From contig CP066689.1 of the NCBI GenBank assembly GCA_016432445.1, positions 210,001 to 242,000 of the forward strand: a stretch of 32,000 nucleotides of DNA, written 5' to 3'. Source of the stretch: Candidatus Saccharimonadota bacterium. GTDB taxonomy: Bacteria; Patescibacteriota; Microgenomatia; UBA1406; GWC2-37-13. The position numbers and the translations under genes are program-made. Positions within the stretch are counted from its first letter, which is position 1. The number at the start of each line of letters is the position of its first letter. This document shows, in pieces, positions 4,473-31,317 of the stretch. The notes beneath the pieces are model-generated. The model was not told the origin of the DNA, ran no database searches, and saw only the letters and a program-made list of their open reading frames with translations.

Positions 4473-5150
4473 TTATTTGCTTGGGTGGATTTTGATGGTA
4501 TTGGCTGCTCTTAACGGATATTCTATAAAAAAAGATTGAGGTCTTTTTTTAATTCTTCTGGCTGACGTAGGCATAATTAATGATTTATCAAACATAATTA
4601 CACCTCCAGCTTTACCTATATGAAGAGCTAAATCCATATCCTCATGGACTTTTTTATCTTCAAGGCAGGTATTTTTTTTTACTTTATCCCAAATTTTTTT
4701 AGTAATCGCCATATTTGGTCCGATTAGGGTTCCTTTTCCTTTTTGAGCGATTCTGACAATGTCAGCATAAATTATACTACCTAAGATAGTGGGTAAAAAA
4801 AAATCATACATCTTTAAAGGGCCGGTAACTGCATCTATTTTGTATCTGGAAAAATCATTGATTATTTTTTTTATCCAATCAGAAGGCGGTATTGAGTCAG
4901 CGTCACAACGGGCAAGGATGTCGCCTTTAGCTTCGTCAAAACCTTTATTTCTAGCATAAGTTATTCCTTGCTTAAATTCTTTAAAGATAGTTGCATTAAA
5001 ATTTTGAGCGACATTAATAGTGTTATCTGTAGAGTTATTATCAACGATAATGATTTCTTCAGGTTTCTCTTCCTGGAGGTTTAAGGCTTCAAGGCATTTT
5101 TCAATATATTTTTCTTCGTTGTAAGCAGGTATGACGACAGATACTTTCAT
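4473..5150 (-). CDS. Family 2 glycosyltransferase
   Basis: VVIPAYNEEKYIEKCLEAL..IIIVDNNSTDNT..CDADS: GT-A fold N-terminus with a DxD-like motif. 225 aa. Confidence 0.8.
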   Translation of the reverse strand: MKVSVVIPAYNEEKYIEKCLEALNLQEEKPEEIIIVDNNSTDNTINVAQNFNATIFKEFKQGITYARNKGFDEAKGDILARCDADSIPPSDWIKKIINDFSRYKIDAVTGPLKMYDFFLPTILGSIIYADIVRIAQKGKGTLIGPNMAITKKIWDKVKKNTCLEDKKVHEDMDLALHIGKAGGVIMFDKSLIMPTSARRIKKRPQSFFIEYPLRAANTIKIHPSK

Positions 5151-5156
5151 TGATTT

Positions 5157-5165
5157 ATTTTATCA
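5157..5165 (-). promoter_or_regulatory. Extended -10 (TGaTAAAAT) 6 nt upstream of the ATG at 5150
   Basis: The minus strand reads TGATAAAAT-aaatca-ATG. No SD-like sequence. Confidence 0.45.
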
Positions 5166-5190
5166 TAGTATAATATCTCTACCAATATTT

Positions 5191-6009
5191 ATGAAACCTT
5201 TTTTTTCAATTATTATTCCTACATTAAATGAAGAGCGTTATCTTCCAAAAATTCTTAGATCTTTATCAAATCAGACAGATAAAAGTTTTGAGGTAATTAT
5301 TGTTGATGCTCATTCAGAGGATAAAACTAAAGAGGTGGCTTTACAGTTTAGCAATAAGTTCATTTTTAATTTTTTTGAGGTTGATAAACGGAATGTTTCG
5401 TTTCAGCGCAACTTTGGAGTTTCAAAATCTGAAGGTGACTATTTGATATTTCTTGATGCCGATGCAGGTATATCTTTGTCATTTATAAAAGGTATTAAAA
5501 AAATTATCACTCACAAAAAAGGCCTTGTCTTTATTCCTCATATCATTCCTGATGAAAAGAATCAGTTTGATATAAAACTAGTTTTCAACGTTGTTAATTT
5601 TTTAATTGATGCCTCTCAGTATGTGGGCAAACCTTTATCCTCAGGAGGTTCAATGATATTTGAAAAAAACTTTTTTCTTCGAATTGGCGGATTTGATGAA
5701 AGTTTGCCGTATGCTGAAGATCATAATCTAGTTCAAAAAGCATATAAATGGGGAGTCAGGGCTAATTTTTTGCCTCAAATTAAAGTTAAGTTTTCTTTAA
5801 GGCGGCTAAAAAGAGAAGGCCGTTTGAAACTTCTTTACAAATACCTTTTATCTACGGCTTATGTGTTGGTTAAAGGAGACATTAAAAAGAAGATTTATAA
5901 TTATGAGATGGGTGGACAGTTTTATGCTAATAAAAATAAAGAAGCTTTATTTAAAGATTATATAACTCAGGTAAATAATTACTTTAAAGGTATTTTTAAG
6001 GAAGACTAA
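5191..6009 (+). CDS. Family 2 glycosyltransferase
   Basis: FSIIIPTLNEERYLPKILRSL..VIIVDAHSEDKT..LDADA. The ATG at 5191 is preferred because the ORF start at 5131 overlaps the divergent gene. TATAAT at 5169-5174. Confidence 0.75.
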   Translation: MKPFFSIIIPTLNEERYLPKILRSLSNQTDKSFEVIIVDAHSEDKTKEVALQFSNKFIFNFFEVDKRNVSFQRNFGVSKSEGDYLIFLDADAGISLSFIKGIKKIITHKKGLVFIPHIIPDEKNQFDIKLVFNVVNFLIDASQYVGKPLSSGGSMIFEKNFFLRIGGFDESLPYAEDHNLVQKAYKWGVRANFLPQIKVKFSLRRLKREGRLKLLYKYLLSTAYVLVKGDIKKKIYNYEMGGQFYANKNKEALFKDYITQVNNYFKGIFKED

Positions 6010-6011
6010 AA

Positions 6012-6728
6012 TTACTTAAACCGGGAAAGGATGGGAAAATGATCAGAAGCTTTTAGAGGTATTTTTTTAGTTTCAATAAGTTCAAGGTTTTTGTAAAGAA
6101 TGTAATCCAGTTTCCACTTCAACGGAAATATTTTAAGGAATTTTCCTTCAAAAGTACAATTAAGGTTATTGGTAGCTTCCTTTAATTTATATTTTTCAAT
6201 CAGTTCTTCAAACTGCTTTCTTTGATATGGATAATTGAAATCGCCGGCAATTAAAACATTTTCATCACGGCTTAAATGCATATCATCTAAAGTAGCTTTC
6301 ATTTGTTTTGTCCTTATTCCATTAGTCCCCAGATAACTAAGATGTAAGTTGTAGCTTGTAATTATTTTTTTTATTCCTTTCACCGAGAATTTTGTTTTTA
6401 ATACTGTTCTTGGATTGTTTCCTCCTCTTAATATGACTAAAAAAAATTCATGATAACTCCTAGGCAAATTAAAACTTGATGATTCCAAAAATTCTATAGT
6501 TTTAGGGTTATAAAAAGTCGCCAAGCCATAGATTTTGTCAAACTTTATAAAAGAATTGGAATAATCTGCTAACTTATACCCATGTTTTTCAACATCTTTA
6601 AGATTTTTTTCGTTAGTTTCAATCTCTTGAAGAGATAATATATCGGGGCGAGTTAAAGAGAAGACTTTTTCGAAGTTATTTAAGGCACTGTTAAAACAGA
6701 CGTTATAAGTAAGCAGGGAAACAGCCAT
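6012..6728 (-). CDS. Endonuclease/exonuclease/phosphatase (EEP) family protein
   Basis: LLTYNV..PDILSLQEIE..AGDFNYP..SDHFPI: the characteristic EEP catalytic motif series. TATAAT (6734-6739, minus strand) lies 5 nt upstream of the ATG. Confidence 0.75.
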   Translation of the reverse strand: MAVSLLTYNVCFNSALNNFEKVFSLTRPDILSLQEIETNEKNLKDVEKHGYKLADYSNSFIKFDKIYGLATFYNPKTIEFLESSSFNLPRSYHEFFLVILRGGNNPRTVLKTKFSVKGIKKIITSYNLHLSYLGTNGIRTKQMKATLDDMHLSRDENVLIAGDFNYPYQRKQFEELIEKYKLKEATNNLNCTFEGKFLKIFPLKWKLDYILYKNLELIETKKIPLKASDHFPILSRFK

Positions 6729-6842
6729 AACATATTATATAAAATTATTAAATTAATATAAGGCAATTTTATCCACAGAGAAAATTATAAATTAAAAAGA
6801 TTGGTAGGACAAGCTAGAGGACGCTTCAATATTTATAGGTCA

Positions 6843-6873: not shown

Positions 6874-6874
6874 C

Positions 6875-6903
6875 TTGACAATGTTAAGAATTTTCTCTAT
6901 ATT
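6875..6903 (+). promoter_or_regulatory. Near-consensus sigma70-type promoter
   Basis: TTGACA (6875-6880), 17-nt spacer, TATATT (6898-6903). The ATG at 6910 lies 6 nt downstream. Confidence 0.6.
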
Positions 6904-6909
6904 TAAATT

Positions 6910-7059
6910 ATGGAAGCTAATAGTCTAAGAAATAGCGACAGGAAGCTTAATAAACAAAGTTTTCAAAAGAAAGAAGATTTATTGCATTTCGTAAAAAAAC
7001 AGTTTAAAGAGTTAGTCAAGAAAAATTTAGAAATTCCAATAACGCTTTATCAATTATAA
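6910..7059 (+). CDS. Small basic hypothetical protein (49 aa), possibly leaderless
   Basis: Read by hand: MEANSLRNSDRKLNKQSFQKKEDLLHFVKKQFKELVKKNLEIPITLYQL*. It sits between a strong promoter and a hairpin terminator. It could instead be a non-coding transcript. Confidence 0.35.
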   Translation: MEANSLRNSDRKLNKQSFQKKEDLLHFVKKQFKELVKKNLEIPITLYQL

Positions 7060-7072
7060 TTGAAGATTGAGG

Positions 7073-7210: not shown

Positions 7211-9409
7211 TTATTGATCTATTTGATAGATGGCTCCTTGTTTATTACTGCTCACGAAAATTTTATCAGCAATTAAGTTAAATTTACTTTCATTTAGTTT
7301 GGGATACTTATTTCTTTCAAGAGTGGAAACAACAACATACTTGATTTGATATTTATTTATTAAATTCATAGTTGTTGCGATATCACTAGATTCATAAATA
7401 TTAACAATGTCAGGGATTCTCTTACCGACAACATCAGACGAACCTCTCCACAGCCACTCATGAACCCACCAGCCGGCAACTGTAGGCAAACCTGTATAGG
7501 CTGAGATCCTGGCATAATCTGTGTAGGAATCACCTTGAGCTTCAAGAATAATTGGTTGATTAGTAATATTAGTATTTAAATAATCAATGATTTCTTTGTC
7601 TTCAGGATAGCTGTTTTTAATCCATGTGGAGCCGTCAAGCTGCGGTTTCTTTTTTAATGAGCCGTAATAGGAAGAGAAAGCAAAAAATGGGTAAATAATT
7701 ATAAAAAAAAATAAGAAAAAATAAATGCTTTTTATAATAAAATTAAAAAAGTATTTCATAAAAGTAAGCCGGTATAAAGCATAAACGGAGGCAATGCTCA
7801 TAATCGTAAAAGCTTGATAGCCTAGTTTAAACATTGTATTTGCTCTAAAGTGAGCCGGATAAATATCTTTAATATAAAAAAACTCGGCAATCGTAATCAA
7901 AAAAGTTCCAAAAGCAAAAAATAAAAGCATTAATAAATCAATTTTATTTAGATTAAGAAGAGAGTGGATTTTTAAGCCTTTTCTTTCAAAATATTTTATG
8001 CTTCTTACGGCAATAATAAATGTCAAAATAGCCAGTGAAATCCAAAAAAATCCCCAGAGTACAAAAAGCATCCATGGGGCAGATACTTGGCAGTTACCTT
8101 TTTCAAAAAGAAAAGGACCCAATTTTTTAAGATTAACAAGGAAATCAGGACTGCAATTGACACCGATGCCGTTTACAAATGGAGAAAAGTTAAGAGAAAA
8201 AGGAAAAGAAAAAATAAGGAAAGAACTAAATAATATTATGCCATAAAACAATGACTGAAAAGATAACCTAAACATAATAAAAATAATAAAAACAGTAAGC
8301 AAAAGATAAATTGGGCCATCAAAAGCATTAGTCATATAATGAATGGCCGACATGAAGCCGATTGCAATAATATAAAAAAGGTTATGGGTTATGGGTGATG
8401 GGTTGTGAGTATTTTTAACTTTAAGAAAAAAACTAAAAAGCAAAGCTAAGGTTAATAAAACAAAAGGGATATCAAAAACATGGCCGTGGAGATCAGCTAC
8501 GACATAAGAATAGGCTGGAAATTCATGAATAGTAAATGGAATAAATCTGGTGGCGTTAGGATACCAGTACTTTGTTGGGTTATAGTTACTGATAATTTTC
8601 CAGAAAGGAATAGGATTTTCATTGGGATAACCGGTAGTGAAAAGATATATGGTATGTAAATTGCCGCTTAAGTTAACAACAAAACTTCCTAAAAAACCAA
8701 AAGCAATTAAAGGCAACTTTTTAATTTTATTAAATCCTAAAACATGTTGTTGAACAAAGGCTATACAGTTGCCAGCCAGTGAAAAAGCAAGAGTCATCCC
8801 TTGAGCAAATATAGTGGCTAGGATTAAATTGTAGGCTACAGTAGGCAATGTATTGGTTAATTTTATTAAAAAGGCTCCAGTTAAATGACCAAAGTAATAA
8901 TAGTTAATAAAATATCCTTGAGGTTTTTGAGGATCAGCCGATAACCACATATCCAAAGGAGGGAAATACTGAGATTTCACAATAGAGTTAATAAACCCAA
9001 AATCCATAAATTTCTCCAAACCCCGCACTGAAGGTTCTTGGCCGCGCACGTAAGTCAAAAACAGCAATGAAGCTATAAAAATAAGTTCTTCTAATATAAA
9101 AATGCCGATTTTTTCTTTATTAAACACATAAGATTTTTTAATCCATAAATAAACATTTACTACTGCAAATAATAGTAAAACCGTAATTAAAGTAAGCTGG
9201 GTAAAAGGAGCAATTTTGGTAAGGCCAAGGATAAATGCTGTGTAGCTTAAAAAAATAATTCCTAAAGTTTTGCTAAAGGCATAGCCCTCATCAAAAAAAT
9301 TAGGAAGGATGCTTCTTATCAGCGGAAAAAAAACTATTCCAATAACAAAAAGATATAAATACCATGTAAGTGTGGTTAAGATCCAGTCCATTTGTTTATT
9401 ATAATGCAT
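7211..9409 (-). CDS. Large polytopic membrane protein with YYY motif (DUF2298 / Chlor_Arch_YYY-like, putative GT-C-type glycosyltransferase)
   Basis: Many TM segments, the FINYYYFGH motif and a C-terminal soluble domain. The true start may be the second Met at 9391, because TATAAT (9398-9403, minus strand) lies 6 nt upstream of it. Confidence 0.65.
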   Translation of the reverse strand: MHYNKQMDWILTTLTWYLYLFVIGIVFFPLIRSILPNFFDEGYAFSKTLGIIFLSYTAFILGLTKIAPFTQLTLITVLLLFAVVNVYLWIKKSYVFNKEKIGIFILEELIFIASLLFLTYVRGQEPSVRGLEKFMDFGFINSIVKSQYFPPLDMWLSADPQKPQGYFINYYYFGHLTGAFLIKLTNTLPTVAYNLILATIFAQGMTLAFSLAGNCIAFVQQHVLGFNKIKKLPLIAFGFLGSFVVNLSGNLHTIYLFTTGYPNENPIPFWKIISNYNPTKYWYPNATRFIPFTIHEFPAYSYVVADLHGHVFDIPFVLLTLALLFSFFLKVKNTHNPSPITHNLFYIIAIGFMSAIHYMTNAFDGPIYLLLTVFIIFIMFRLSFQSLFYGIILFSSFLIFSFPFSLNFSPFVNGIGVNCSPDFLVNLKKLGPFLFEKGNCQVSAPWMLFVLWGFFWISLAILTFIIAVRSIKYFERKGLKIHSLLNLNKIDLLMLLFFAFGTFLITIAEFFYIKDIYPAHFRANTMFKLGYQAFTIMSIASVYALYRLTFMKYFFNFIIKSIYFFLFFFIIIYPFFAFSSYYGSLKKKPQLDGSTWIKNSYPEDKEIIDYLNTNITNQPIILEAQGDSYTDYARISAYTGLPTVAGWWVHEWLWRGSSDVVGKRIPDIVNIYESSDIATTMNLINKYQIKYVVVSTLERNKYPKLNESKFNLIADKIFVSSNKQGAIYQIDQ
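8381..8408. repeat. Tandem heptamers embedded in coding sequence
   Basis: GTTATGG GTTATGG GTGATGG GTTGTGA on the plus strand. Encodes THNPSPITHN in the minus-strand membrane protein. Confidence 0.7.
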
Positions 9410-9413
9410 TCGA

Positions 9414-9485
9414 TTTTAGATCTTTGATCTTGGATCTTAGATAATAAAATTCTAAGATCTAACATCTAAGACCTAAGATCTAAAG
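9414..9485. repeat. Heptamer-register inverted array (unit TCTAAGA family) between divergent gene starts
   Basis: TTTTAGA TCTTTGA TCTTGGA TCTTAGA, 9-nt spacer, TCTAAGA TCTAACA TCTAAGA CCTAAGA TCTAAAG. Confidence 0.8.
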
Positions 9486-9490
9486 GTGGG

Positions 9491-9519
9491 TTGCTTTTTT
9501 GAGCTGTTTCTGATATAAA
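9491..9519 (+). promoter_or_regulatory. valS promoter candidate (leaderless geometry)
   Basis: TTGCTT, 17-nt spacer containing the TG extension (9511-9512), then TATAAA (9514-9519). The ATG at 9527 is 7 nt downstream. Confidence 0.5.
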
Positions 9520-9526
9520 AAAGGTC

Positions 9527-11713
9527 ATGGAACCGAAGTTTATTCCGTCTCAAGTAGAAGAAAAAATATATAAGTTTTGGGAAGAAAAAGGCTATTTTAA
9601 AGCAAAAGTTGATAAAAACAAAAAGCCGTTCTCAATAATTCTTCCTCCTCCTAATGCTAATGCCGATCTTCATTTAGGACAGACAATGTATGTTTATGAA
9701 GATATTATGGTTCGTTATCACAAACTTTTGGGAGATGAGGTGTTATGGCTTCCTGGAGCAGATCATGCTGGTTTTGAAACGCAGTACGTTTTTGAAAAAC
9801 ATCTTCAAAAGCAAGGGAAAAGCCGTTTTGATTATGACAGGGACACTCTTTATAAAATGATCTGGGATTTTGTCATAAACAATAAAAGCAACATGGAAAA
9901 CCAACTTAAACGTTTAGGTTTTGCTCTTGATTGGTCAAAAGAAAAATTTACTCTGGACCCGGATATCGTCAAAATTGTTTATAAAACATTTAAAAAACTT
10001 TATGATGATGGGTTAGTTTATCGCTCAGAAAGGTTAGTTAACTACTGTACTAAATGTGGAACTGGATTTTCTGATCTGGAAGTAGTTCATGTTGAACGTA
10101 CCGATCCACTTTACTATATGAAGTATGGGTCATTTATTTTAGCTACAGTTCGGCCTGAAACCAAGTTTGGGGATACGGCTGTTGCTGTAAATCCAAAAGA
10201 TAAACGATATAAAAAATGGGTGGGTCAAGAGATTGAGGTAGAAGGGCTTATCGGAAAATTCCGCGTGAAAGTCATTGCTGATGAGGCTATTGATCCAAAG
10301 TTTGGGACAGGAGTTGCCAAGGTGACTCCGGCTCACGACATGACGGATTTTGAAATAGGTAAACGTCACGATTTGGAAATGAAACAGGTTATTGGATTTG
10401 ATGGAAAGCTTACTGCCATAGCCGGTCCATATGCTGGACTTAGAGTAAAAGCTGCCCGAGAGAAGGTAGTTGAAGATATGAAAAAAAAAGGCCTGATTGA
10501 TCATATTGATGAAAATTATACTCATACCGTTAGTACTTGCTATAAATGTAATACTACATTAGAACCATTGCCTATTCCTCAATGGTATGTGCGAATTCGT
10601 CCTTTAGCCGATAGAGCCATTAAAGAGATAAAAGCTAAAAAAATTTATTTTTTGCCAAAACGCTTTAAAAAAATGGCTATTCAATGGTTGACTAATTTCC
10701 ATGATTGGAATATTTCCCGTCAGGTTGTTTGGGGAATAAGAATTCCGGCGTGGCACTGCATAGATTGTGATCATGGCGGCATTCAAGAGTGGGTGATCAC
10801 CGATGGAGATAAACCAGAAAAATGCACTAAATGCCAAAGTACTCACTTGGAACAGGATATTGATACTTTTGATACTTGGTTTTCATCAGCCCAGTGGCCA
10901 TATGCCACTTTGCTTTCGCAAAGTGGAATTTCAAATTTCAAATTTCAAATTTCAAAAGAAAATTCAGAAAATGATTTTTTTAATTATTTTTATCCTACAT
11001 CTGTAATGGAGACAGGCTATGATATTTTACCTTGGTGGGTAGCCAGAATGATCATGATGGGTTATTACGTTATAGATAAGCCTCCTTTTAGGTTAGTTTT
11101 CCTTCATGGACTGGTACGGGATAAAAAAGGGCAAAAAATGAGCAAATCCAAAGGAAATGTAATCAATCCTATTGACATGGTTGACAAATATGGCGCCGAT
11201 GCCTTAAGAATGTCTCTTCTTTTTGGAGCAAAAGAGGGTAATGATATTTCAATGTCCGAGGAGAAAATTGTAGGTATGAGAAATTTTACCAACAAGATTT
11301 GGAATATCGGAAGGTTTATCCACTTGAATCAAATCCCAAATCCAAATGTCAAATTTCAAATGTCAAATACAATTTTGAAGGAATTGAAAAAAGAGTTTGA
11401 GGAGGAAAAGAAAGCTTATCTTAAAAATATGAAAAATTACCAATTTACTAAAGCTCTTGATTTAGTGTATGATTTTTTGTGGCACAGATTTGCTGATTAT
11501 TATATAGAACAATTGAAAGATGATCTAAGAACTGGTAAAATAGATGTTTTGGAAGTATTAAGATCTGTTTATAAAGAGAATTTAATAATGCTTCATCCTT
11601 TTGCTCCGTTTGTAACCGAAGCAGTTTGGAAGGTATTTGAAGGGGAAGAGAAATCAATATTAGATTCAAGATTCATGATTCAGGATTCAAGAGGTTTTAT
11701 TCATGAATCGTAA
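9527..11713 (+). CDS. valS: Valyl-tRNA synthetase (short form, no C-terminal coiled coil)
   Basis: Class I signature PPPNANADLHLGQ (HIGH-like), KMSKSKGN, the DTWFSS..YPTS..WWVARM core and a CP1/editing-sized insert. The N-terminus FIPSQVEEKIYKFWEEKGYF is typical of ValRS. Confidence 0.85.
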   Translation: MEPKFIPSQVEEKIYKFWEEKGYFKAKVDKNKKPFSIILPPPNANADLHLGQTMYVYEDIMVRYHKLLGDEVLWLPGADHAGFETQYVFEKHLQKQGKSRFDYDRDTLYKMIWDFVINNKSNMENQLKRLGFALDWSKEKFTLDPDIVKIVYKTFKKLYDDGLVYRSERLVNYCTKCGTGFSDLEVVHVERTDPLYYMKYGSFILATVRPETKFGDTAVAVNPKDKRYKKWVGQEIEVEGLIGKFRVKVIADEAIDPKFGTGVAKVTPAHDMTDFEIGKRHDLEMKQVIGFDGKLTAIAGPYAGLRVKAAREKVVEDMKKKGLIDHIDENYTHTVSTCYKCNTTLEPLPIPQWYVRIRPLADRAIKEIKAKKIYFLPKRFKKMAIQWLTNFHDWNISRQVVWGIRIPAWHCIDCDHGGIQEWVITDGDKPEKCTKCQSTHLEQDIDTFDTWFSSAQWPYATLLSQSGISNFKFQISKENSENDFFNYFYPTSVMETGYDILPWWVARMIMMGYYVIDKPPFRLVFLHGLVRDKKGQKMSKSKGNVINPIDMVDKYGADALRMSLLFGAKEGNDISMSEEKIVGMRNFTNKIWNIGRFIHLNQIPNPNVKFQMSNTILKELKKEFEEEKKAYLKNMKNYQFTKALDLVYDFLWHRFADYYIEQLKDDLRTGKIDVLEVLRSVYKENLIMLHPFAPFVTEAVWKVFEGEEKSILDSRFMIQDSRGFIHES
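10927..10954. repeat. (AATTTCA)x4 perfect tandem heptamer array inside valS
   Basis: Four exact copies read from the sequence. Translated as ISNFKFQISK in a loop longer than I recall for E. coli ValRS. Confidence 0.85.
11331..11365. repeat. Heptamer array inside valS matching the left arm of the AAATCCA-family hairpins
   Basis: AAATCCC AAATCCA AATGTCA AATTTCA AATGTCA. Encodes IPNPNVKFQMSN. Confidence 0.8.
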
Positions 11714-11726
11714 ATCATGAATCAAA
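11663..11726. repeat. Heptamer-register inverted array (unit GATTCAN) overlapping the valS stop
   Basis: GATTCAA GATTCAT GATTCAG GATTCAA, spacer, then TTCATGAATCGTAAATCATGAATC. An 11-bp perfect stem forms between GATTCATGATT and AATCATGAATC. Confidence 0.8.
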
Positions 11727-11749
11727 TTAATTAATTTCATAATTTATCT

Positions 11750-11884
11750 ATGAAACGTACTTATCAGCCAAAAAAGGGAAAAAGAATGAAAAAACATGGG
11801 TTTTTGAAAAGAATGAAAACTCATGATGGAAGAAATGTTATAAAAAGAAGAAGAAATAAAGGGAGAAAAAAATTAACAGTATAA
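11750..11884 (+). CDS. rpmH: 50S ribosomal protein L34
   Basis: Hand translation: [44 protein letters not shown], which matches the L34 family pattern. It is absent from the ORF track because it is under 60 aa. CATAAT (11738-11743) lies 6 nt upstream of the ATG. Confidence 0.9.
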
Positions 11885-11896: not shown

Positions 11897-12685
11897 ATGA
11901 ATCCACTTGAACTAATTGGACGTTATATTTATGACCCATTTTTTTTCCATCCATTCATAAATCTTTTAGTAGCTTTTACTAAACTATTTTTAATAGTTAA
12001 AATACCATGGGCTTTTGGTTTTGCTATTGTTGCTTTAACTGCTTTAATCCGTCTTATTCTTCATCCTTTTTTTGATAAGCAGATACAAACAAGTAAAAAA
12101 ATGCATGATTTAAAACCCCATCTTGATGTTTTGTCCCAAAAACACAAAAAAGATCCTAAAAAGCTTCAGGCTGAACAGATGCGACTCTATAAAGAAGCAG
12201 GCATTAATCCAGCATCAGGATGTCTATTTGTTATTATCCAAATGCCTATTTTTATAGCTTTGTATCAAACATTGTCCCTTTTCTTGACGACAGGGAATAT
12301 TGAAAAAATAAATAAAGTTTTATATTTCCCTTTCTTAAAAATTCAGGCGCTTGATCCATCATTTTTTGTATTTAACTTAGGTGTAACACCAGCTCAATCA
12401 GGTCCTTGGTATTACTACCTTGTTCCTTTAATAACGGCTGTTCTTCAATATTATCAAACTGTAGTGACTATGCCTGCGCCCGCCAAGGTTGAAAACAAAG
12501 AAGGTGAAAAGAAAGTAGAAAATAAAGGTGGAGATTTCCAGCAGGCAATGCAAACTCAGATGAAGTATATTTTCCCGCTTATGATCGGATGGTTTTCTTA
12601 TACTTTGCCAGTGGGATTATCCTTATATTGGAACATCTTCTCCATCTTTAGTATAATTCAGTATAAGAGGGTTTATAAGAAATAA
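11897..12685 (+). CDS. yidC: Membrane protein insertase YidC/Oxa1 (short type)
   Basis: LTALIRLILHPF..QMRLYKEAGINPASGCL..IQMPIFIALY..LSLYW. Conserved position after rpmH. Confidence 0.85.
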   Translation: MNPLELIGRYIYDPFFFHPFINLLVAFTKLFLIVKIPWAFGFAIVALTALIRLILHPFFDKQIQTSKKMHDLKPHLDVLSQKHKKDPKKLQAEQMRLYKEAGINPASGCLFVIIQMPIFIALYQTLSLFLTTGNIEKINKVLYFPFLKIQALDPSFFVFNLGVTPAQSGPWYYYLVPLITAVLQYYQTVVTMPAPAKVENKEGEKKVENKGGDFQQAMQTQMKYIFPLMIGWFSYTLPVGLSLYWNIFSIFSIIQYKRVYKK

Positions 12686-12753
12686 ATCCAAAATCCAAAT
12701 TTCAAATTTCAAAACATTCATCATTTGACATTTGAGCTTTGATATTTGGATTT
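12684..12753. repeat. Heptamer-register inverted array (AAATCCA family), exactly ten 7-mers in one register
   Basis: AAATCCA AAATCCA AATTTCA AATTTCA AAACATT CATCATT TGACATT TGAGCTT TGATATT TGGATTT. Confidence 0.85.
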
Positions 12754-13265: not shown

Positions 13266-13437
13266 GCTAATTTTTTTAATTCTTCTTTATCCGGCAGTGA
13301 TTTTGTTTGATCTATTTTATTATTTCCTTTACCGTTCTTCCTGTTTGCAATGCACTAATATCGGTGAATTTTTAAAAAACTCTTCTCTCTCGGTATTTCT
13401 CATCTCTCAAGCCATAAGAACATTTAAAAGATCTTAG
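13228..13437 (+). CDS. Doubtful small hydrophobic ORF
   Basis: 69-aa ORF that overlaps the jag 3' end by 38 nt. One hydrophobic stretch. Its stop lies inside the heptamer repeat. No other support. Confidence 0.15.
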   Translation: MNLNKMKTVWKNKLIFLILLYPAVILFDLFYYFLYRSSCLQCTNIGEFLKNSSLSVFLISQAIRTFKRS

Positions 13438-13511
13438 ATCTGAGATCTTAGATTTTCGATATTAATCTGTTTTGTTTCTAAGATCCAAGATCTAACATCT
13501 AAGATCTAAAT
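13428..13511. repeat. Heptamer-register inverted array (TCTAAGA family), twelve 7-mers in one register
   Basis: AAGATCT TAGATCT GAGATCT TAGATTT TCGATAT TAATCTG TTTTGTT TCTAAGA TCCAAGA TCTAACA TCTAAGA TCTAAAT. Shares the exact 18-mer AAGATCTAACATCTAAGA with 9414-9485. Confidence 0.85.
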
Positions 13512-13532
13512 CTGGCATTTACTTCCTAAAAA

Positions 13533-13541
13533 TGGTAGAAT
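13533..13541 (+). promoter_or_regulatory. Extended -10 (TGgTAGAAT) 6 nt upstream of the ATG at 13548
   Basis: TGGTAGAAT-aaattc-ATG. No SD. Confidence 0.5.
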
Positions 13542-17399: not shown

Positions 17400-17439
17400 G
17401 ATTGAATTTGAGTAAAGATTAGGTTATTCTAAAGATAGA

Positions 17440-18216
17440 ATGAAAAAAATTATTTTCCTTTGCCTCTTCTTATTATTAACAGCTTCTTTTTTAATTTTCT
17501 CTCCAAGCAAAATATATGCCTTGGGTTTGTCTAATAATGCAGCAGAGAATATGTCAGGAATAAGCTGCGGTATTCCTGATTCATCTATTAACAGATGTTG
17601 TGCTCCTTTGTCATTTAAAGTTGATCTTAGTTTTGATAATAAATTTTTAGATGTTCCTTTAACTATATTTCGAGCCCCTCTTGAGTTTTTAGGCAATGGA
17701 ATTGTTATGGGGTTAATTGATATTTACGGTAAGGTTGAGAGATCAATAACAAAGACTAATGGATGCATTAAAGGTATCCCAAGTACAGAGAATCCGGCTG
17801 ATCCAAACTGTATTTGTAGCGATGCTAATTCCTCATCTTTAAAATCCATTTCTTATTTATGTGAGAAAATAGTTTCTCCAGATGAGAAAAAGCAGTGTAA
17901 AGCCTGTATTATTGGCGGTACTGCCAATACAAAAGCAGGTATCTGGACAGCAATAGGTTGTGTTCGGGGTGACTTAAGTTCATTTATTCAAGACACTGTG
18001 CTTAGCTGGGGTTTAAGATTGGCCGGTTTAATTGCTCTGCTTTGTATTATTTATTCGGCTTTTAGACTACAGGTTTCAAGGGGTAACCCTGAGGCTATTA
18101 AAAAAGCTCAGGAAATGCTTACTTCCTGCATAATGGGATTACTGCTTATTATCTTTTCAGTTTTTATATTAAGAATAATCGGAGTTGATATCTTAAGAAT
18201 CCCGGGTTTCGGTTAA
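17440..18216 (+). CDS. Secreted Cys-rich domain fused to a VirB2/TrbC-like two-TM pilin module
   Basis: Signal peptide MKKIIFLCLFLLLTASFLIFSPSKIYA. About 10 Cys in residues 40-175. The C-terminus is TM, SRGNPEAIKKAQ, TM, matching the pilin-like paralogs. Confidence 0.65.
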   Translation: MKKIIFLCLFLLLTASFLIFSPSKIYALGLSNNAAENMSGISCGIPDSSINRCCAPLSFKVDLSFDNKFLDVPLTIFRAPLEFLGNGIVMGLIDIYGKVERSITKTNGCIKGIPSTENPADPNCICSDANSSSLKSISYLCEKIVSPDEKKQCKACIIGGTANTKAGIWTAIGCVRGDLSSFIQDTVLSWGLRLAGLIALLCIIYSAFRLQVSRGNPEAIKKAQEMLTSCIMGLLLIIFSVFILRIIGVDILRIPGFG

Positions 18217-19959: not shown

Positions 19960-20003
19960 AATGCAAGGGAAGAAAATGCTGTAAATGGTACAATTATTTT
20001 AGA

Positions 20004-20783
20004 ATGAATATCTTAAAAAGATTTTTAATCTTATCTTTTTTTATTATTTTTCTTTTTTGGGGTTTTCTATCGTCAACTTATGCCGAAAATGATAATTCTT
20101 CATCAGGTTCAACAATAAAAGAGTTTCTTAAAATCTTTTTTCCTTCTTCCTCAGGTTTTCAAAATAACATCTCTCAGTTATCAGCTGATTCTCCAAATAA
20201 CAATCAATTACAACCTCAAGAGGCAATCTCTGTTAAGAGTTTAAGGGAACTTTTCTCAGAAATTGAAAAAAAAGTTCAGATACCGGCAAGAATCATTGAA
20301 GGAGTCATGCTAGTTGAGTCGCCAGGTTTACTTAATCCAGAGTCACCTAATTTTTTAACTGATGAGCAAGTGCAGGAATATTCCCGACCTGGTGCAGTAA
20401 TTCCTGGGTGCCGCGCTAATGCCTGCTCAGCCATGGGGCCAATGCAGATGACAACAGGGATTGACAACAGCGGTTCAAGCAGCTGTTCAGACTGCGGTCT
20501 AAACGTATGTCCTAATGCTTGGGCAGGTTTTGGAGACAGTGTTAATACTTTTGGTGGCTACTCTCATTTATCTAATCCTTGCAATCTTCGCGATAACATC
20601 TATGCAGCCGCGGCTAAACTGAAAGATAATAGCGGTGCCGGCTCAGGAGTGTGGACAAAAGAACAGGTTTACCGTGCCGCTGAAAGATATTATGGTTCAT
20701 GCAGTGATAAATACCGTTATGAACGGTTGGATAACAAAACATATTGCGAGTTTTTGTGGTGGTATTATACCGGCCAGGATTAA
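20004..20783 (+). CDS. Secreted lytic transglycosylase-like (SLT/VirB1-like) Cys-rich protein
   Basis: Signal peptide MNILKRFLILSFFIIFLFWGFLSSTYA. SLT-like motifs VMLVES (Glu-Ser) and AMGPMQMT (GxMQ), then IYAAAAKL and AAERYYG. The ATG at 20004 is preferred over 19938. Extended -10 TGgTACAAT at 19986-19994. Confidence 0.55.
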   Translation: MNILKRFLILSFFIIFLFWGFLSSTYAENDNSSSGSTIKEFLKIFFPSSSGFQNNISQLSADSPNNNQLQPQEAISVKSLRELFSEIEKKVQIPARIIEGVMLVESPGLLNPESPNFLTDEQVQEYSRPGAVIPGCRANACSAMGPMQMTTGIDNSGSSSCSDCGLNVCPNAWAGFGDSVNTFGGYSHLSNPCNLRDNIYAAAAKLKDNSGAGSGVWTKEQVYRAAERYYGSCSDKYRYERLDNKTYCEFLWWYYTGQD

Positions 20784-22997: not shown

Positions 22998-23788
22998 ATT
23001 TTTTTAATTGGGAAGGCATAAAACCAGGTAAAAGCTGAGACGCTTTTGATAATATTTTCCGGTTTTTCATCATTGCCGTCAGCATAACTGCAGTTATTTG
23101 GGTCTCTAATGCTAACACTTGAAGAATCAATATCGACATTATCAACCGTGAATGCGTGATCGATTCTTCGTGGCGTACTGCAGCTGGCGCAGGGGAAATC
23201 TTTAGAAGAGGCAATAATAAGATAACCCTGATCAAGATAATTTTTAGCTTGTTTAAGATCTAAAATTCCATTGAAAGCAAGGTTTTGTCCCACATGCATT
23301 CCTAATCCTTCAAACCAAGAACTGGAAAGAGCGTTTAGCAAATAGCTGGCATTATCTCCGCAGGTTCTCCATCCATTTTGCTGAAAAATTAAATCTACTT
23401 GAGGTGGAGAGAGTCCTATGCCAAAAGTAGATAAGATCATTGATAGTGAGGTTGGAGCACATCCGGCCGCGCCTAAATTACATATACTTTTCCACATAGT
23501 ATTACCTTGACAATAAAAAACAAAGCCGTTGCGTTTTTCTTTATTGTAAATAGAGGGATTAGGAGGATTAGAAGGATTAGGCAGTTGATCTTCGGGAATG
23601 TTTGAGGTTGATATTTCTCCTTTCGGAAAAAAAATTTTTAAAAATTCTTTAATAGTTTCTGCTCCATTACTCTTGCTTGATTCGCTGTCTGGTTGAGCAC
23701 GAACTGTAGTAGAGAAAGAAACTAATACTATTAATAAAATTAATATTATTTTACTCATATCGTTGACAAGAGATTTTTTTTTAGACAT
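22994..23788 (-). CDS. Secreted papain-like cysteine peptidase (Peptidase_C39-like / cell-wall hydrolase candidate)
   Basis: Signal peptide ending in TVRA. YCQGNTMW..GAAGCAPTSLSMIL (nucleophile Cys context). Later IDHAFTV (His) and IRDPN. Confidence 0.5.
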   Translation of the reverse strand: MSKKKSLVNDMSKIILILLIVLVSFSTTVRAQPDSESSKSNGAETIKEFLKIFFPKGEISTSNIPEDQLPNPSNPPNPSIYNKEKRNGFVFYCQGNTMWKSICNLGAAGCAPTSLSMILSTFGIGLSPPQVDLIFQQNGWRTCGDNASYLLNALSSSWFEGLGMHVGQNLAFNGILDLKQAKNYLDQGYLIIASSKDFPCASCSTPRRIDHAFTVDNVDIDSSSVSIRDPNNCSYADGNDEKPENIIKSVSAFTWFYAFPIKKI

Positions 23789-23791
23789 AAT
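23763..23791 (+). promoter_or_regulatory. Near-consensus sigma70-type promoter, leaderless geometry
   Basis: TTGACA (23763-23768), 17-nt spacer, CATAAT (23786-23791). The ATG at 23798 is 6 nt downstream. Confidence 0.6.
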
Positions 23792-23797
23792 GTTTTT

Positions 23798-26743
23798 ATG
23801 GCCGGCTTTTTTGATTTTATAAAAAAACCTAACTCACCTGCAACTCCAAATCAGCAGCCTGCCACTATGAGTCAGCCTCCTCAAGTTCCTTCACCGGTAA
23901 CTAATTCTCCTGCCTTGCCTCAAACTCCAACGCAGGAAGCTAACATGATGCTTCATTTTGACACTCATCAAAGCCTTCGGCAAGCTCCACCCTCCGTCAA
24001 GACTTCCGCGTCCGTTAAAACTCCGGCGGACAAGTCGGATGACAAGCCTGATGACAAACTTTCAAAGCCATCAATTAATCCTTTATCTCAAAATTTAAGC
24101 GGAGAAAAAAGAGTCAATATTGATGTTATGACCCATTTAACTCAACGTTCAAACCGCGCTTTTTTATCGGCTAACAGTAAAGCCAAAGAATTAAAAAATA
24201 GTTTTATTGACAGTGAACATATTCTTCACGGGTTATTGTCTGATGGAGAGATTTATAAATTGTTTATTGATCTTAAAATCCAGCCTCAGTTTATTGAGGA
24301 TGAACTTAACAAACTTTATCGTCGGGAGAATAACAATGCTTCTCCTCAAATGTCTCCAAGAGTTAAAAAAATTATTGACGATTCATTAGTAATTGCAAGA
24401 AAACTAGGTTTTGAGTTCATTTCACCTGAACACATTTTACTGGGTTTATATGAGGAAGGTGAAGGGGTAGGCGCTAGAGTATTAGTTAAATTAGGATTAA
24501 AAAAAGAAGATATTAATAAAAAGATATTGGGGAAGAAAGAAGGGTTGGAAGCTGATCAAAAAGAAGCTCAAAATAAGAAAAATGTTTTGGATCAATATAC
24601 TATAGATTTAACTGCAAAAGCCTCACAAGGGCTTCTGGATCCGGTTGTCGAACGGTCGGAGGTAATTGAGAGAGTGATCCATATTTTATCCAGAAGAACT
24701 AAAAACAATCCGGCCTTGGTTGGCGAGGCAGGCGTTGGTAAAACTGCTATTGTTGAAGGATTAGCGCAGAAAATAGTGTCTAAACAAGTACCTGATCCAT
24801 TGCTTAATAAGAAAATTTTACAGCTTGATCTTATGAGTATTTTGGCAGGCGCCTCTCATAGAGGTGAGTTTGAAGAAAGGATGAAAGATTTGATAGAACA
24901 AATTAAAGCCAGTCAGGGTCAGCTTCTCCTTTTTATTGATGAGATTCATAATATTGTAGGTGCCGGTTCATCTGGCGAAGGGTCACTTGATGCTTCAAAT
25001 TTTTTAAAACCAGCTCTGGCTCGTGGTGAAATACAGCTTATTGGAGCAACGACTTTAACAGAGTATCGGAAATATATTGAAAAAGATCCGGCTCTTGAGC
25101 GCCGTTTTCAACCAGTACTTGTGCCCGAACCCACCGAAGAGCAAGCTGTGAAGATGCTTAAAAGCATTAAAGATAAATATGAAGCCTTTCATAAAGTAAA
25201 AATTCCAGATGATGCTGTTAACGCGGCGGTTCGTTACTCTAAACGTTATATTGGTGACAGGTTTTTACCTGATAAAGCAGTGGATTTGATTGATGAGGCG
25301 GCCTCTGCTGTTAGGCTTCCATTAATTTCTTTGCCTGAAGAAATTAAGTCGATTGAAACCCGAGTAGCAGAATTGACTCAAGAGGCGGCGGAAGCTGAAA
25401 AAGCCTCTGATAAAGTTAAAGCAAGGATAATCCGTTCAAAAATTGATGATATCCAAGCTGATCTTAAAGAAAAGAAAGATCAATATAATGTAAAAAAAGC
25501 CCAAACAACAACCGAAATAACTGAAAATATTATTAAAGATATTGTTTCCCGCTGGACTGGAATTCCGGTTTCCAAGATTACAGGCAATGAAAAAGAAAAA
25601 TTAGCTTCGCTTGAAAGCATTATGCATAAAAGACTTATCGATCAGGAGACAGCTGTATCAGCTGTGGCCGCGGCAGTAAGACGCGGAAGAGCCGGCTTGA
25701 AATCAAATCAAAGACCAATTGGAAGTTTTGTTTTCTTAGGACCAACTGGTGTTGGTAAAACAGAACTGGCTAAAACTTTGGCTGATATTTTATTTGGTCA
25801 GGAAGAGGCCATGGTTAGATTTGATATGACTGAGTATATGGAAAAGCATGAAGTAGCTAAACTTTTGGGAGCTCCTCCAGGATATGTGGGTTATGAGGAG
25901 GGCGGGAAGCTAACTGAAGCTGTACGTCGCAGACCTTACTCGGTTGTCCTTTTTGATGAGGTAGAAAAAGCCCATCCGGATATTTTTAATATTCTTTTGC
26001 AGATTCTTGATGATGGACGATTAACTGATAATAAAGGTCATACAATTTCTTTTAAAAATACTGTTGTTATTTGCACTTCAAACATTGGGACGCAGGTAAT
26101 TCAGGATGAGCTTTTGAAGGAAAAGGATCTGGAGATTAAAGAAGAGACAGAAGAGGAAATTAAAAGAGATAAAGAAAAATATGAAGGAATTAAAGGAAAA
26201 GTAATGGCTGAATTAAAGAAATTTTTCAAACCAGAACTTATTAACCGTTTTGATGAGATAATTGTATTTGAACCTTTAAAATTTGTGCACATGATGGAAA
26301 TTGTAAAACTGCAGTTAAAAAGTGTAGGTAAGCTTCTGGAAGATCAAGATATTGGTTTTTCCTATACAGAGGCTGCGGTTAAAGAAATAGTTAGATCAGG
26401 ATTTGATCCTATTTATGGAGCGCGTCCATTAAAAAGAGCGATCCAAAAATTATTGGAAAATCCAGTTTCTACTTTGATAATTGAAGGCAAAATTAAAGCA
26501 GGTAATGTTTTGCATACTGATTTTGATGGAGATAACTTCATTTTTAATGTAGAACAAACAGAAATGCTGCCAGCAGATCAAGTCAAAAAAAATGAAATCA
26601 AAGAATTTGTGTGTAATGTTTGTCATCAAGAGTTTAAAACAGAGGTAAACCAGTCATCAACCGTAATTTGTCCTTATTGTACAGCCAAAAATATTAATGA
26701 AAAGAAAGCAGAGGAAAAAAAAGAAATAAATGTATTAAAATAA
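23798..26743 (+). CDS. Two-ring Clp/Hsp100 AAA+ ATPase (ClpC/ClpB-like) with N-terminal P/Q/S/T-rich extension and C-terminal zinc ribbon
   Basis: Clp_N repeats ([17 protein letters not shown]). Walker A GEAGVGKT and GPTGVGKT. Walker B LFIDEIH and [20 protein letters not shown]. Short middle domain of about 65 aa. C-terminal [16 protein letters not shown]. Confidence 0.85.
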
Positions 26744-28332: not shown

Positions 28333-28358
28333 ATCCCGCAGTAAGCGGGATTTTTTTT
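28333..28358 (+). terminator. Strong intrinsic terminator 13 nt upstream of the pyrH-fusion start
   Basis: ATCCCGC-agtaa-GCGGGAT followed by T8. Confidence 0.75.
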
Positions 28359-29697: not shown

Positions 29698-29707
29698 AAT
29701 ATAATCC

Positions 29708-30742
29708 ATGATCTTTAAGCAAATAACTGTCACTGATTTTAGAAACTTCGACAGCAAGATCTTTGATTTTCATCCGTCTTTAACTATCATTATTGGTGAA
29801 AATGCGAGGGGGAAAACTAATCTTTTGGAGGCTATATTTTTATCAATAAATGGCGCAGGTTTTAGAGAATCAAAAGAAGAAGAACTTATAACGCTGGGTA
29901 AAGGTCAGGCTGTTGTAGAAGCTGAGTGGGAAGATAAAAAAGAAGAACAAAAATTTCAGATTGTTATTACGAAAAGAGGTGAGACTATTGAAAAGAAATT
30001 TTTTGTCAATAAGACCAAGAAAGGCTATTATTCTTATTCCCAGTATCAGATTAAATCAGTTTTATTTGCTCCTGAACATATAGACATAATCAATGGTTCA
30101 CCAGATAAAAGGCGGGAATATTTTAATAGGTTTATTGCTATTTTTGATCCTGAATACAAAAAAAAGGTTCATAATTACGAGCATGCTTTATATAAAAGAA
30201 ACAAAATTTTGGAACATCATACTAATGATCAAACATTAAAAGAAGAGTTGCTTTTTTGGAATGATTATCTGGAAAAACAGGCAGTTTATATCAGCGCTAA
30301 AAGGCAGGAATACAGTGATTATTTAAATGATAACCAATCAATTGACGGTAGATTATTTAGAATTAATTACTTAAAGAATGAGTTAACCCAAGAATTATTA
30401 AATAAAGTTTATGATGAAGAAAAAAGATTAAGAAGAACTTTGATTGGTCCGCAAAAAGATGATTTTCAGATACATCTTAATGATAAAAACGTCCACCATT
30501 TCGGTTCCCGCAGTGAACAGCGGCTAGCTGTTTTCTGGCTCAAGCTTAATGAAATAAATTATCTTACTCATTTTTTTAAAAAGAAACCTATCTTACTCTT
30601 GGATGATATTTTCTCAGAGCTTGATACTAAAAATAAAAAGGTCATTCTTGATCTTATCGGCAATTATCAAACTGTGCTTACAACTACGGAAAAAGAGCTT
30701 CTTGATCTAGTCAACATGCCCAAAACAGTCATCCAGCTTTGA
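29708..30742 (+). CDS. recF: DNA replication and repair protein RecF
   Basis: ITVTDFRNF..IIGENARGKTNLLEAI (Walker A), a GSRSEQRL signature-like motif and LLLDDIFSELD (Walker B). Confidence 0.85.
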   Translation: MIFKQITVTDFRNFDSKIFDFHPSLTIIIGENARGKTNLLEAIFLSINGAGFRESKEEELITLGKGQAVVEAEWEDKKEEQKFQIVITKRGETIEKKFFVNKTKKGYYSYSQYQIKSVLFAPEHIDIINGSPDKRREYFNRFIAIFDPEYKKKVHNYEHALYKRNKILEHHTNDQTLKEELLFWNDYLEKQAVYISAKRQEYSDYLNDNQSIDGRLFRINYLKNELTQELLNKVYDEEKRLRRTLIGPQKDDFQIHLNDKNVHHFGSRSEQRLAVFWLKLNEINYLTHFFKKKPILLLDDIFSELDTKNKKVILDLIGNYQTVLTTTEKELLDLVNMPKTVIQL

Positions 30743-30747
30743 TAATT

Positions 30748-30761
30748 TGGTAGAATATAAT
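30748..30761 (+). promoter_or_regulatory. tRNA promoter candidate (overlapping -10 boxes)
   Basis: TGgTAGAAT overlapping TATAAT (30756-30761), 17-22 nt upstream of the tRNA 5' end. Confidence 0.45.
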
Positions 30762-30778
30762 AGGCTATAGTCTAATTT

Positions 30779-30862
30779 GGAGGGTTGGCCGAGTGGTTTA
30801 AGGCGCAAGTCCCGAAAACTTGTGGGCGAAAGCCCTCACAGGTTCGAATCCTGTACCCTCCG
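30779..30862 (+). tRNA. tRNA-Ser(CGA), type II with long variable arm, no encoded CCA
   Basis: Folded by hand. Acceptor GGAGGGT/ACCCTCC. 3-bp D stem GCC/GGC. Anticodon stem CAAGT/ACTTG with loop CCCGAAA. Variable arm TGGGCGAAAGCCCTC. T arm ACAGG-TTCGAAT-CCTGT. Discriminator G. Confidence 0.85.
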
Positions 30863-30885
30863 CTTAGATTTAGTAGAATATAGTT

Positions 30886-31317
30886 ATGAGTGGCGAACAA
30901 TTACTATCTCCAGTAAAAACTTTTCAATATGAAGGAAAATCATTACCTGTTTCTCATACTTCAACTTTGAATGTCACTACTGGAGTAGAATGTGATGTTT
31001 ATCAATTTGTAGGAGATCAAAGTAAAGATCTAGGAGTTATTCGGATACAACCAGGTTGTAAAACTCCTCTTCAAAAAGTTCTTAAAGGAGACAAGACGGT
31101 TGAGGGATATATTTCAGGAAAAGGAAAATTGATTATTACGAAACCAAACGGTGAAAAATATATATACGAGGTGAGTGATAAACTTGAAAAACCATTAGCA
31201 GTATTGGTAGAAATTGGGGAATTAATGCAATGGGAAGCTGATAAAGAATCTGATTTAAAAGCTTATGAAGTTTGTTATCCACCTTATGAAGATGGACGTT
31301 ATGAAAATATTGAATAA
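30886..31317 (+). CDS. Hypothetical protein, possibly a cupin-like beta-barrel
   Basis: 143 aa. The beta-rich pattern LGVIRIQPGCKTPLQKVLKGDKTVEGYISGKGKLII is only weakly cupin-like. TAGAAT (30874-30879) lies 6 nt upstream of the ATG. Confidence 0.5.
   Translation: MSGEQLLSPVKTFQYEGKSLPVSHTSTLNVTTGVECDVYQFVGDQSKDLGVIRIQPGCKTPLQKVLKGDKTVEGYISGKGKLIITKPNGEKYIYEVSDKLEKPLAVLVEIGELMQWEADKESDLKAYEVCYPPYEDGRYENIE

Follow-up and report, generated by a model that had tools for sequence, protein, structure and literature searches.

The question raised by this locus is how transcription and translation begin in a genome where the -10 box of the promoter so often ends a few nucleotides (nt) ahead of the start codon and where Shine-Dalgarno (SD) sequences are scarce. 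The window (the whole stretch of DNA analysed, 32 kb of contig CP066689.1) is densely coded at 34% GC, and its source genome is Candidatus Roizmanbacteria (Microgenomates, in the candidate phyla radiation (CPR)/Patescibacteria). Taken together, the sequence evidence makes it likely that sigma-70 promoters located at start codons give leaderless or near-leaderless mRNAs at many Roizmanbacteria/Microgenomates transcription units.

In the proposed mechanism, many transcription units would be driven by an ordinary sigma-70-type promoter (TTGACA, 17 nt, an optional extended -10 TG, TATAAT) whose -10 box ends 6 nt, less often 5–9 nt, ahead of the start codon. RNA polymerase would initiate about 7 nt past the -10 box, favouring a purine after a pyrimidine, and the first nucleotide of the transcript would be the A of the ATG or lie 1–3 nt from it. 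The ribosome would then engage the 5′ AUG directly, without an SD contact. Translation of internal genes and of genes with leaders would probably proceed by coupling or by re-initiation over the very short distances between genes, favoured by an A-rich, G-poor context in which U stands at position -1.

The initial annotation had named eight core and four looser cases of a -10 hexamer close to an ATG, and all of them were recovered from the sequence with the hexamers, spacers and -35 spacings that it reported. The first eight lines below give the core cases, the next four the looser ones, and the last three further genes of the window. Among these, the minus-strand promoter at 1445 is an extra case absent from the initial annotation.

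5148–5185, minus strand: promoter and start of a GT2 glycosyltransferase gene; TTGGTA (5185–5180), 17 nt, TGaTAAAAT (5165–5157), 6 nt, ATG 5150; 8.9 bits
6875–6912, plus strand: promoter and start of a conserved open reading frame (ORF) of 49 amino acids; TTGACA (6875–6880), 17 nt, TATATT (6898–6903), 6 nt, ATG 6910
9389–9403, minus strand: box and start of a DUF2298 membrane protein gene; TATAAT (9403–9398), 6 nt, ATG 9391
9491–9529, plus strand: valS promoter; TTGCTT (9491–9496), 17 nt including TG (9511–9512), TATAAA (9514–9519), 7 nt, ATG 9527
11738–11752, plus strand: box and start of rpmH (L34), a weak case; CATAAT (11738–11743), 6 nt, ATG 11750; 4.4 bits
13512–13550, plus strand: promoter and start of the gene for a protein of 1283 amino acids; CTGGCA (13512–13517), 18 nt, TGgTAGAAT (13533–13541), 6 nt, ATG 13548; 9.0 bits
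23763–23800, plus strand: promoter of a ClpB-like chaperone gene; TTGACA (23763–23768), 17 nt, CATAAT (23786–23791), 6 nt, ATG 23798
30874–30888, plus strand: box and start of an ORF of 143 amino acids; TAGAAT (30874–30879), 6 nt, ATG 30886; 6.0 bits; directly after tRNA-Ser (30779–30863)
6726–6739, minus strand: box and start of an endonuclease/exonuclease/phosphatase (EEP) family gene; TATAAT (6739–6734), 5 nt, ATG 6728; 8.9 bits
19927–19942, minus strand: box and start of the gene for a protein of 561 amino acids; TACAAT (19942–19937), 7 nt, ATG 19929
19986–20006, plus strand: box and start of the gene at 20004; TGgTACAAT (19986–19994), 9 nt, ATG 20004; 10.5 bits
1529–1547, plus strand: box and start of a Fic/DOC protein gene; TATAAT (1529–1534), 10 nt, ATG 1545
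1443–1480, minus strand: first of three T4SS-pilin-like genes; TTGACT (1480–1475), 17 nt, TACACT (1457–1452), 6 nt, ATG 1445; 5.0 bits
5169–5193, plus strand: second GT2 gene, a short-leader exception; TATAAT (5169–5174), 16 nt, ATG 5191
17425–17442, plus strand: pilin-like gene; TATTCT (17425–17430), 9 nt, ATG 17440, 41 nt past the preceding gene; 3.5 bits

Comparison of orthologous loci provides what we regard as the strongest evidence that these boxes are promoters. The geometry is kept in orthologues whose spacers have diverged, as found for the ClpB-like gene, the 561-amino-acid protein, EEP, Fic, DUF2298, GT2, the 49-amino-acid ORF and the pilin-like gene. For the ClpB-like gene, TTGACA-17-(C/G/T/A)ATAAT-6-ATGGC is kept in about 45 of 55 orthologous metagenome loci with a variable spacer sequence, and for the 49-amino-acid ORF, TTGACA-17-TATAnT-6/7-ATG is kept in most of nine orthologous loci, along with residues 15–49 of the peptide. 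The 561-amino-acid protein has TACAAT, TATAAT or TAAAAT at 5–6 nt in all eight orthologues of a first set, and of the 32 unique upstream regions in a second set, 18 have the box at 6 nt, mostly together with TTGAC at -35. TATAAT is found at 5–7 nt in 11 of 13 EEP orthologues, many with the extended -10 TG, and at 6–9 nt in all eight Fic orthologues. Most GT2 loci related to the gene at 5150 have a -10 box at 6–9 nt, and the DUF2298 orthologues have TATAAT at 8 nt in 13 of 18 cases and at 6 nt in locus L014. A box of the TGgTATCAT type lies at exactly 6 nt in 10 of 13 orthologues of the pilin-like gene at 17440, which probably has its own promoter. A family of 1252 amino acids, probably orthologous to the protein at 13548, shows a close -10 box in 76% of 17 loci, and several Microgenomates valS orthologues carry TACAAT at exactly 6 nt. 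No conserved box was found in the orthologue comparison for jag, the ligase, yidC, recF or the gene at 26748. Finding conserved boxes in some orthologue sets and none in others means that the comparison tells real cases and chance matches apart. One hexamer, 6 nt from 26748 and not listed in the initial annotation, was rejected as a promoter, as its orthologues do not conserve it. No orthologues of the ORF at 30886 were found in the fetched related loci.

The position of the boxes in the window departs from random expectation. Gene starts in the window were fixed by a blind first-ATG rule, which avoids the circular choice of a start by its geometry. Under this rule, 6 of 17 unit-first genes (the first genes of transcription units) have a TATAAT-like hexamer at 6–7 nt, with a binomial P of 1.5e-5 to 6e-4. 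Among all 1046 ATGs on both strands, only 36 (3.4%) have a hexamer with at most one mismatch at that distance. The two best sites of a generic sigma-70 scan, each with 11 of 12 matches, are the promoters at 6910 and 23798, the top matches of the left and right halves of the window, respectively. Five of the 102 sites returned by the scan, the additional promoter at 1445 among them, end exactly 6 nt ahead of a gene start, compared to 0.05–0.5 expected, and the box at 13548 scores within the top 0.1% among all ATGs.

The distribution of spacers, for which the initial annotation had proposed a genome-wide check, was determined in two sets of related loci. The first set comprised 80 valS loci, of which the Microgenomates part amounts to about 0.7 Mb, and the replicate set comprised 80 independent metagenome loci around ClpB homologues (1.09 Mb; L086–L165). 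Genes in the window, the related loci and the controls were called by the same rule (first ATG, ORFs of at least 80 amino acids, greedy without overlap), and a strict -10 hexamer was required to have A at position 2, T at position 6 and at least five of six matches. A sharp peak at spacer 6 is present in both sets and absent from the controls, which are SD-using taxa outside the CPR with a similar GC content.

Microgenomates valS loci: 355 unit-first genes; 38 at spacer 6; 20, 23 and 18 at spacers 7, 8 and 9; about 6 each at 0–5, upstream baseline about 5
Replicate ClpB loci: 421 unit-first genes; 96 at spacer 6; 26, 16 and 11 at spacers 7, 8 and 9; flanks about 7
Non-CPR controls, 28–58% GC: 232 unit-first genes; 8 at spacer 6; 3, 2 and 1 at spacers 7, 8 and 9; no peak

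A motif model fitted by expectation-maximisation (EM) gave a similar picture. It found TGnTATAAT in 54% of the unit-first upstream regions of the first set, with spacer weights of 0.28, 0.11, 0.13 and 0.10 for 6, 7, 8 and 9 nt, and in the replicate, with one gene per family, it found the motif in 58% with a weight of 0.42 at spacer 6; in the controls the motif was located at 11–29 nt. By this model, 31–40% of unit-first genes have the motif at 6–9 nt. As the related loci are syntenic, counts were also made per family: a box of at least 5 bits lies at 5–9 nt in 35 of 137 families (26%) and 32 of 127 families (25%) in the two sets, compared to 6 and 5 families (about 4%) at control offsets and 10 of 173 in non-CPR taxa. 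The signal differs between lineages.

Roizmanbacteria: box at 5–9 nt in 39%; at control offsets in 3%
Other Microgenomates: box at 5–9 nt in 22%; at control offsets in 6%
Saccharibacteria-labelled loci: box at 5–9 nt in 22%; at control offsets in 3%
Peregrinibacteria, Gracilibacteria and Parcubacteria loci: box at 5–9 nt in 7%; at control offsets in 9%
Clostridia, Gastranaerophilales, Caldisericia and Deltaproteobacteria: no signal at 5–9 nt or at control offsets

The hexamers also carry the other elements of a promoter. An extended -10 TGn accompanies 33% of the hexamers lying 6–7 nt from starts but 5% of hexamers elsewhere (P = 1e-16), and a -35 match of at least four of six positions at 16–18 nt is found for 37% of the 6–7-nt hexamers against a background of 14.5% (P = 8e-8). 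With TATAAT bearing A2 and T6, an optional extended -10 TG, and TTGACA at 17 ± 1 nt, the motif has the features of a sigma-70 promoter, and on these grounds we regard the hexamers as -10 boxes rather than AT-rich noise.

Where transcription starts we infer from this geometry. A -10 box that ends 6–7 nt before the ATG would place the start of the transcript at the A or within about 2 nt of it. Purines make up a fraction of 0.17 at -1 in the 6-nt class, compared to a background of 0.52, and the last positions of the spacer are rich in pyrimidines, which fits the selection of the A of the ATG as start site. Furthermore, the median start-to-start distance of divergent pairs is 67 bp (69 bp in the replicate) compared to 228 bp in the controls (P = 3e-6), and starts so close to each other leave no room for leaders. 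In the window, the divergent GT2 starts at 5150 and 5191 are 40 bp apart with their -10 boxes back-to-back, and the ClpB promoter adjoins the start codon of a divergent gene. At 20004, where the box lies further away, transcription is expected to start late or to give an mRNA whose leader is about 3 nt long.

The initial annotation had proposed leaderless mRNAs as the default for operon-first genes. This holds in the window, where a box lies at 5–7 nt from 11 of 18 unit-first genes and within 10 nt of 13 of 18; for the clade it was overstated, the fraction there being about 25–40%. Thus, a large minority of the transcription units of the clade, and a majority of those in the window, would be transcribed from start-adjacent promoters, with an mRNA that begins within about 3 nt of the AUG.

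Several observations weigh against this reading, and they are best considered together with the rival explanations. AT-rich intergenic DNA could yield TATAAT-like hexamers everywhere, and those at 6–7 nt could have been hand-picked. Hexamers with at most one mismatch stand at 6–7 nt from 6.8% of the ATGs with an AT-rich upstream region. The sigma-70 scan showed no overall excess, its 102 promoter-like sites comparing with about 118 in shuffled sequences. The hexamer at 26748 is unconserved, and a -10 box at the spacing seen in rpmH is only sporadic and inconsistent among rpmH orthologues; the rpmH and 30886 cases both depend on weak boxes. Four of the 18 unit-first genes in the window (12774, 23788/23758, 28372, and 5191 with its box at 16 nt) lack a close -10 box. 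In the related loci, moreover, starts were set by the crude first-ATG rule, and gene counts are not independent. Without an excess of raw promoter-like counts at 34% GC, the case depends on position and conservation. On these points, chance would have to account for a sharp spacer-6 peak in two independent sets that is absent from low-GC control taxa, for the blind-start binomial result in the window (P ≤ 6e-4), for the TG and -35 elements that accompany the hexamers, and for a geometry conserved across orthologues. Chance is largely refuted and, in our judgement, extremely improbable.

The motif could instead be an A/T-rich, non-SD translation signal in mRNAs with leaders, comparable to that of Bacteroidetes (GeneMarkS-2 group B). 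Consistent with this idea, the A-rich context with U at -1 is common to all genes, SD is missing everywhere, and a 6-nt spacing of the hexamer is seen as well for genes with an upstream gap of less than 25 nt (14 of 153 and 29 of 264, or 9–11%). These short-gap (internal) genes, however, show much weaker TG and -35 support at their 6–7-nt hexamers, part of which probably reflect AT-rich context. Internal genes carry only an A-rich tract and T at -1, and the promoter features of the positional TATAAT are weaker among them. A ribosome-binding motif has no need of a -35 hexamer at fixed spacing, yet the full architecture of TTGACA, 16–18 nt, TGn and TATAAT is present, and where divergent starts are only 30–70 bp apart, no other promoter would fit upstream. 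A translation signal is therefore a very unlikely explanation of the motif. It is harder to dismiss the view that the promoters are real but mostly produce leaders of 1–8 nt, or are supplemented by promoters further upstream, strictly leaderless mRNAs being a minority. About half of the close boxes are at 7–13 nt; boxes at 8–13 nt, which are common, imply leaders of 1–7 nt; most DUF2298 orthologues have an 8-nt spacer; and the 9-nt class is purine-rich at position 7, as would fit transcription starting 3 nt ahead of the ATG. Spacer 6 is nevertheless the single dominant class (0.28–0.42 of motif positions), and with pyrimidines at the last spacer positions, the first nucleotide well suited as a start is the A of the ATG. 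In addition, functional studies usually class SD-less leaders of at most 5 nt with leaderless mRNAs, which also counts against this view. We consider it unlikely, and transcription that begins at or within a few nucleotides of the AUG remains the preferred reading.

Near absence of SD, internal genes included, was another claim of the initial annotation, and the counts bear it out. SD-like motifs were scored as GGAG, GAGG or AGGA at -20 to -4, with the following frequencies.

Window: 1 of 28 genes
Microgenomates valS loci: 10%
Microgenomates ClpB loci: 6%
Other CPR: 16%
Non-CPR controls, same pipeline: 49%

SD 5-mers occur at 4.7% in Microgenomates compared to 2.9% in a control window, and a GGAGG-like motif 5–10 nt ahead of most starts, as in canonical SD-led initiation, is not found. 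Internal genes lie 0–25 nt past the preceding gene, with an A-rich, G-poor upstream sequence and T at -1. A few perfect AAGGAGGTGA sites are present in other Microgenomates, for example ahead of GroES/GroEL-sized genes. From these rare AAGGAGGTGA sites, an intact anti-SD that is seldom used seems probable. A search for the conserved 16S 3′ region in all fetched loci gave no match.

The base before the start codon is itself biased. Over all start codons of the window, loci L001–L055 and the replicate loci, T is the base at -1 in 56% of the Microgenomates cases (in the replicate 65%; by family average 54%) and G in only 5%, compared to 26% T and 26% G before internal Met codons and 32% T at non-CPR control starts. 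As the bias is equally strong in internal genes and in genes without a close -10 box, it is probably a feature of the translation context, e.g., pairing of UAUG with A37 of the initiator tRNA, and not only a rule of start-site selection.

Compared to known systems, this organisation most resembles group C of GeneMarkS-2 (Actinobacteria, Deinococcus-Thermus), in which a Pribnow box (TANNNT) lies 6–8 nt before operon-first starts in 25–50% of operons (Lomsadze et al. 2018, PMC6028130). Here too, a -10 box adjoins the starts of first genes with a peak at spacer 6, and the affected fraction of about 25–40% for the clade lies within that range. Code-11 genomes of group C are described as almost all high-GC (MetaGeneMark-2 preprint, 10.1101/2022.07.25.500264), whereas the present lineage is low-GC (26–45%) with genetic code 11. 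Furthermore, the remaining genes of group C genomes carry SD, whereas SD-like motifs precede only 5–10% of genes here. The present arrangement is the promoter layout of group C in a low-GC lineage of the CPR whose remaining genes lack the usual SD, and the proposed mechanism is already known from other bacteria.

Low-GC Mycoplasma/Mollicutes genomes of group C, which use code 4, are predicted to have 30–60% leaderless transcripts and unimodal promoter spacers (10.1101/2022.07.25.500264). They share with the present lineage a low-GC, reduced genome with many predicted leaderless transcripts, but they belong to another phylum and keep recognisable SD models. In the window TGA is a stop codon, and ORFs close normally under table 11. 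The likeness to Bacteroidetes (group B) lies in the near absence of SD before all genes and in the A-rich context upstream of starts. Unlike that group, the lineage has canonical TTGACA/TATAAT promoters placed at the start codon, so that the positional motif is a promoter rather than a ribosome-binding motif, and it shows a strong preference for U at -1 (56–65%). Among the papers of the searchable library, none was found that relates leaderless mRNAs to CPR, Patescibacteria or Saccharibacteria, or SD usage to CPR.

A broader reading, which we offer tentatively as possible though short of probable, is that Microgenomates (and probably Saccharibacteria) have almost abandoned SD-led initiation while keeping the anti-SD, with leaderless mRNAs from start-adjacent sigma-70 promoters for unit-first genes and an SD-independent route elsewhere (re-initiation over tiny gaps, or a U(-1)/A-rich context), in a distinct low-GC, code-11 regime tied to reduced ribosomes. 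If so, gene starts would be systematically mis-called in metagenome-assembled genomes (MAGs) of CPR. CPR bacteria, with their reduced ribosomes and nearly all of them uncultured, constitute much of bacterial diversity, and their translation initiation is essentially unstudied. If at least a third of units are leaderless and SD is nearly unused, a low-GC lineage would join the high-GC Actinobacteria and Deinococcus, of which the trait has been considered typical. Such a finding would bear on whether leaderless initiation is ancestral or linked to genome reduction, and it would predict promoters and 5′ ends for engineering the few cultivable relatives, e.g., Saccharibacteria.

Start codons in MAGs of CPR can be corrected with the help of the promoter geometry. 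The starts corrected here are 9391, 19929, 1545 and 5191, at which callers that rely on the longest ORF or on SD take a start further upstream. The choice by geometry of 9391 over 9409, 19929 over 19959 and 1545 over 1449 agrees with the N-termini of orthologues: 18 DUF2298 orthologues begin at the residue aligned with 9391, and an independent gene call in another assembly of the same organism gives a Fic protein of 347 amino acids, i.e., the 1545 start. For the second GT2 gene, 5131 was rejected as the start in favour of 5191 (MKPFFSIIIP), with which an independent gene call of 272 amino acids agrees. For the divergent C39-like gene, 23788 was set aside, as promoter alignments of orthologues favour the ATG at 23758, directly upstream of the ClpB -35; the gene probably starts there. 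Neither 23788 nor 23758 has a close -10 box.

The genomic setting of these promoters is as follows. The identity of valS was confirmed by NCBIfam (797 bits compared to a cut-off of 704), and its nearest relatives are found in Candidatus Roizmanbacteria and other Microgenomates MAGs at 65–71% amino-acid identity. The gene order of the window is shared by about 19 of the related valS loci, and an exact-protein look-up placed the same organism in several Logan (SRA-run) assemblies. By Pfam and NCBIfam, the window encodes five T4SS-pilin-like proteins, a Fic/DOC protein, an ATP-dependent DNA ligase, two GT2 glycosyltransferases, an EEP-family nuclease/phosphatase, DUF2298, rpmH, yidC, jag, a ClpB-like chaperone, recF and one tRNA-Ser. 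In most bacteria the usual gene order is rpmH-rnpA-yidC. Here rpmH (11750–11884) is followed 12 nt later by yidC at 11897, and rnpA is not between them.

Ahead of its Clp_N domain, the ClpB-like protein (23798–26743) carries about 100 additional N-terminal residues (MAGFFDF...), which are conserved, and it scores below the NCBIfam ClpB equivalog cut-off (950 compared to 1232 bits). Its promoter region (23756–23800; loci L086–L165) is unusually conserved, with TTGACA, an AT-rich sequence, a TTTTCTT/CTC tract and the -10 box. In several orthologues a TGACA-n5-TGTCA palindrome overlaps the -35, and this palindrome may be a repressor (heat-shock) operator. The amino-acid-kinase/methyltransferase fusion gene at 28372 and its orthologues in loci L088, L089, L138, L140 and L147 start 12–20 nt past a canonical GC-rich terminator hairpin with a T-run (28333–28351 in the window), too close for a normal promoter to fit in between. 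The T-run leads into TAGACT, 6 nt and the ATG in some orthologues, and in others TGaTATAAT lies at 11–13 nt.

Arrays of 7-nt tandem repeats are found between genes of the window (9412–9483, 13429–13513, 11662–11724, 12684–12748, 4402–4469 and 1493–1515) and inside genes (10927–10956, 8380–8404 and 11343–11368). The repeat units GATCTTA/TCTAAGA, AGATTCA/TCATGAA and AAATCCA/CATTTGA often form inverted pairs, which fold into imperfect hairpins of 25–35 bp (-18 to -29 kcal/mol; z of -4.4 to -6.6) without a T-run. These heptad-repeat hairpins may be insulators or terminators between units, and they could belong to the same organisation if SD-led initiation has indeed been abandoned. Period-7 arrays of at least three copies number 85 in 300 kb of Roizmanbacteria, 45 in 418 kb of other Microgenomates and 161 in the 1.09-Mb replicate, compared to 8 in 419 kb of non-CPR controls. 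Other periods within 6–10 nt show no comparable excess in the first set (at most 13 arrays each); in the replicate set, higher numbers (46–61 arrays) were also seen for periods 6, 8 and 9. The repeat unit varies between genomes, and about half of the arrays lie inside ORFs, though 7 is not a multiple of 3.

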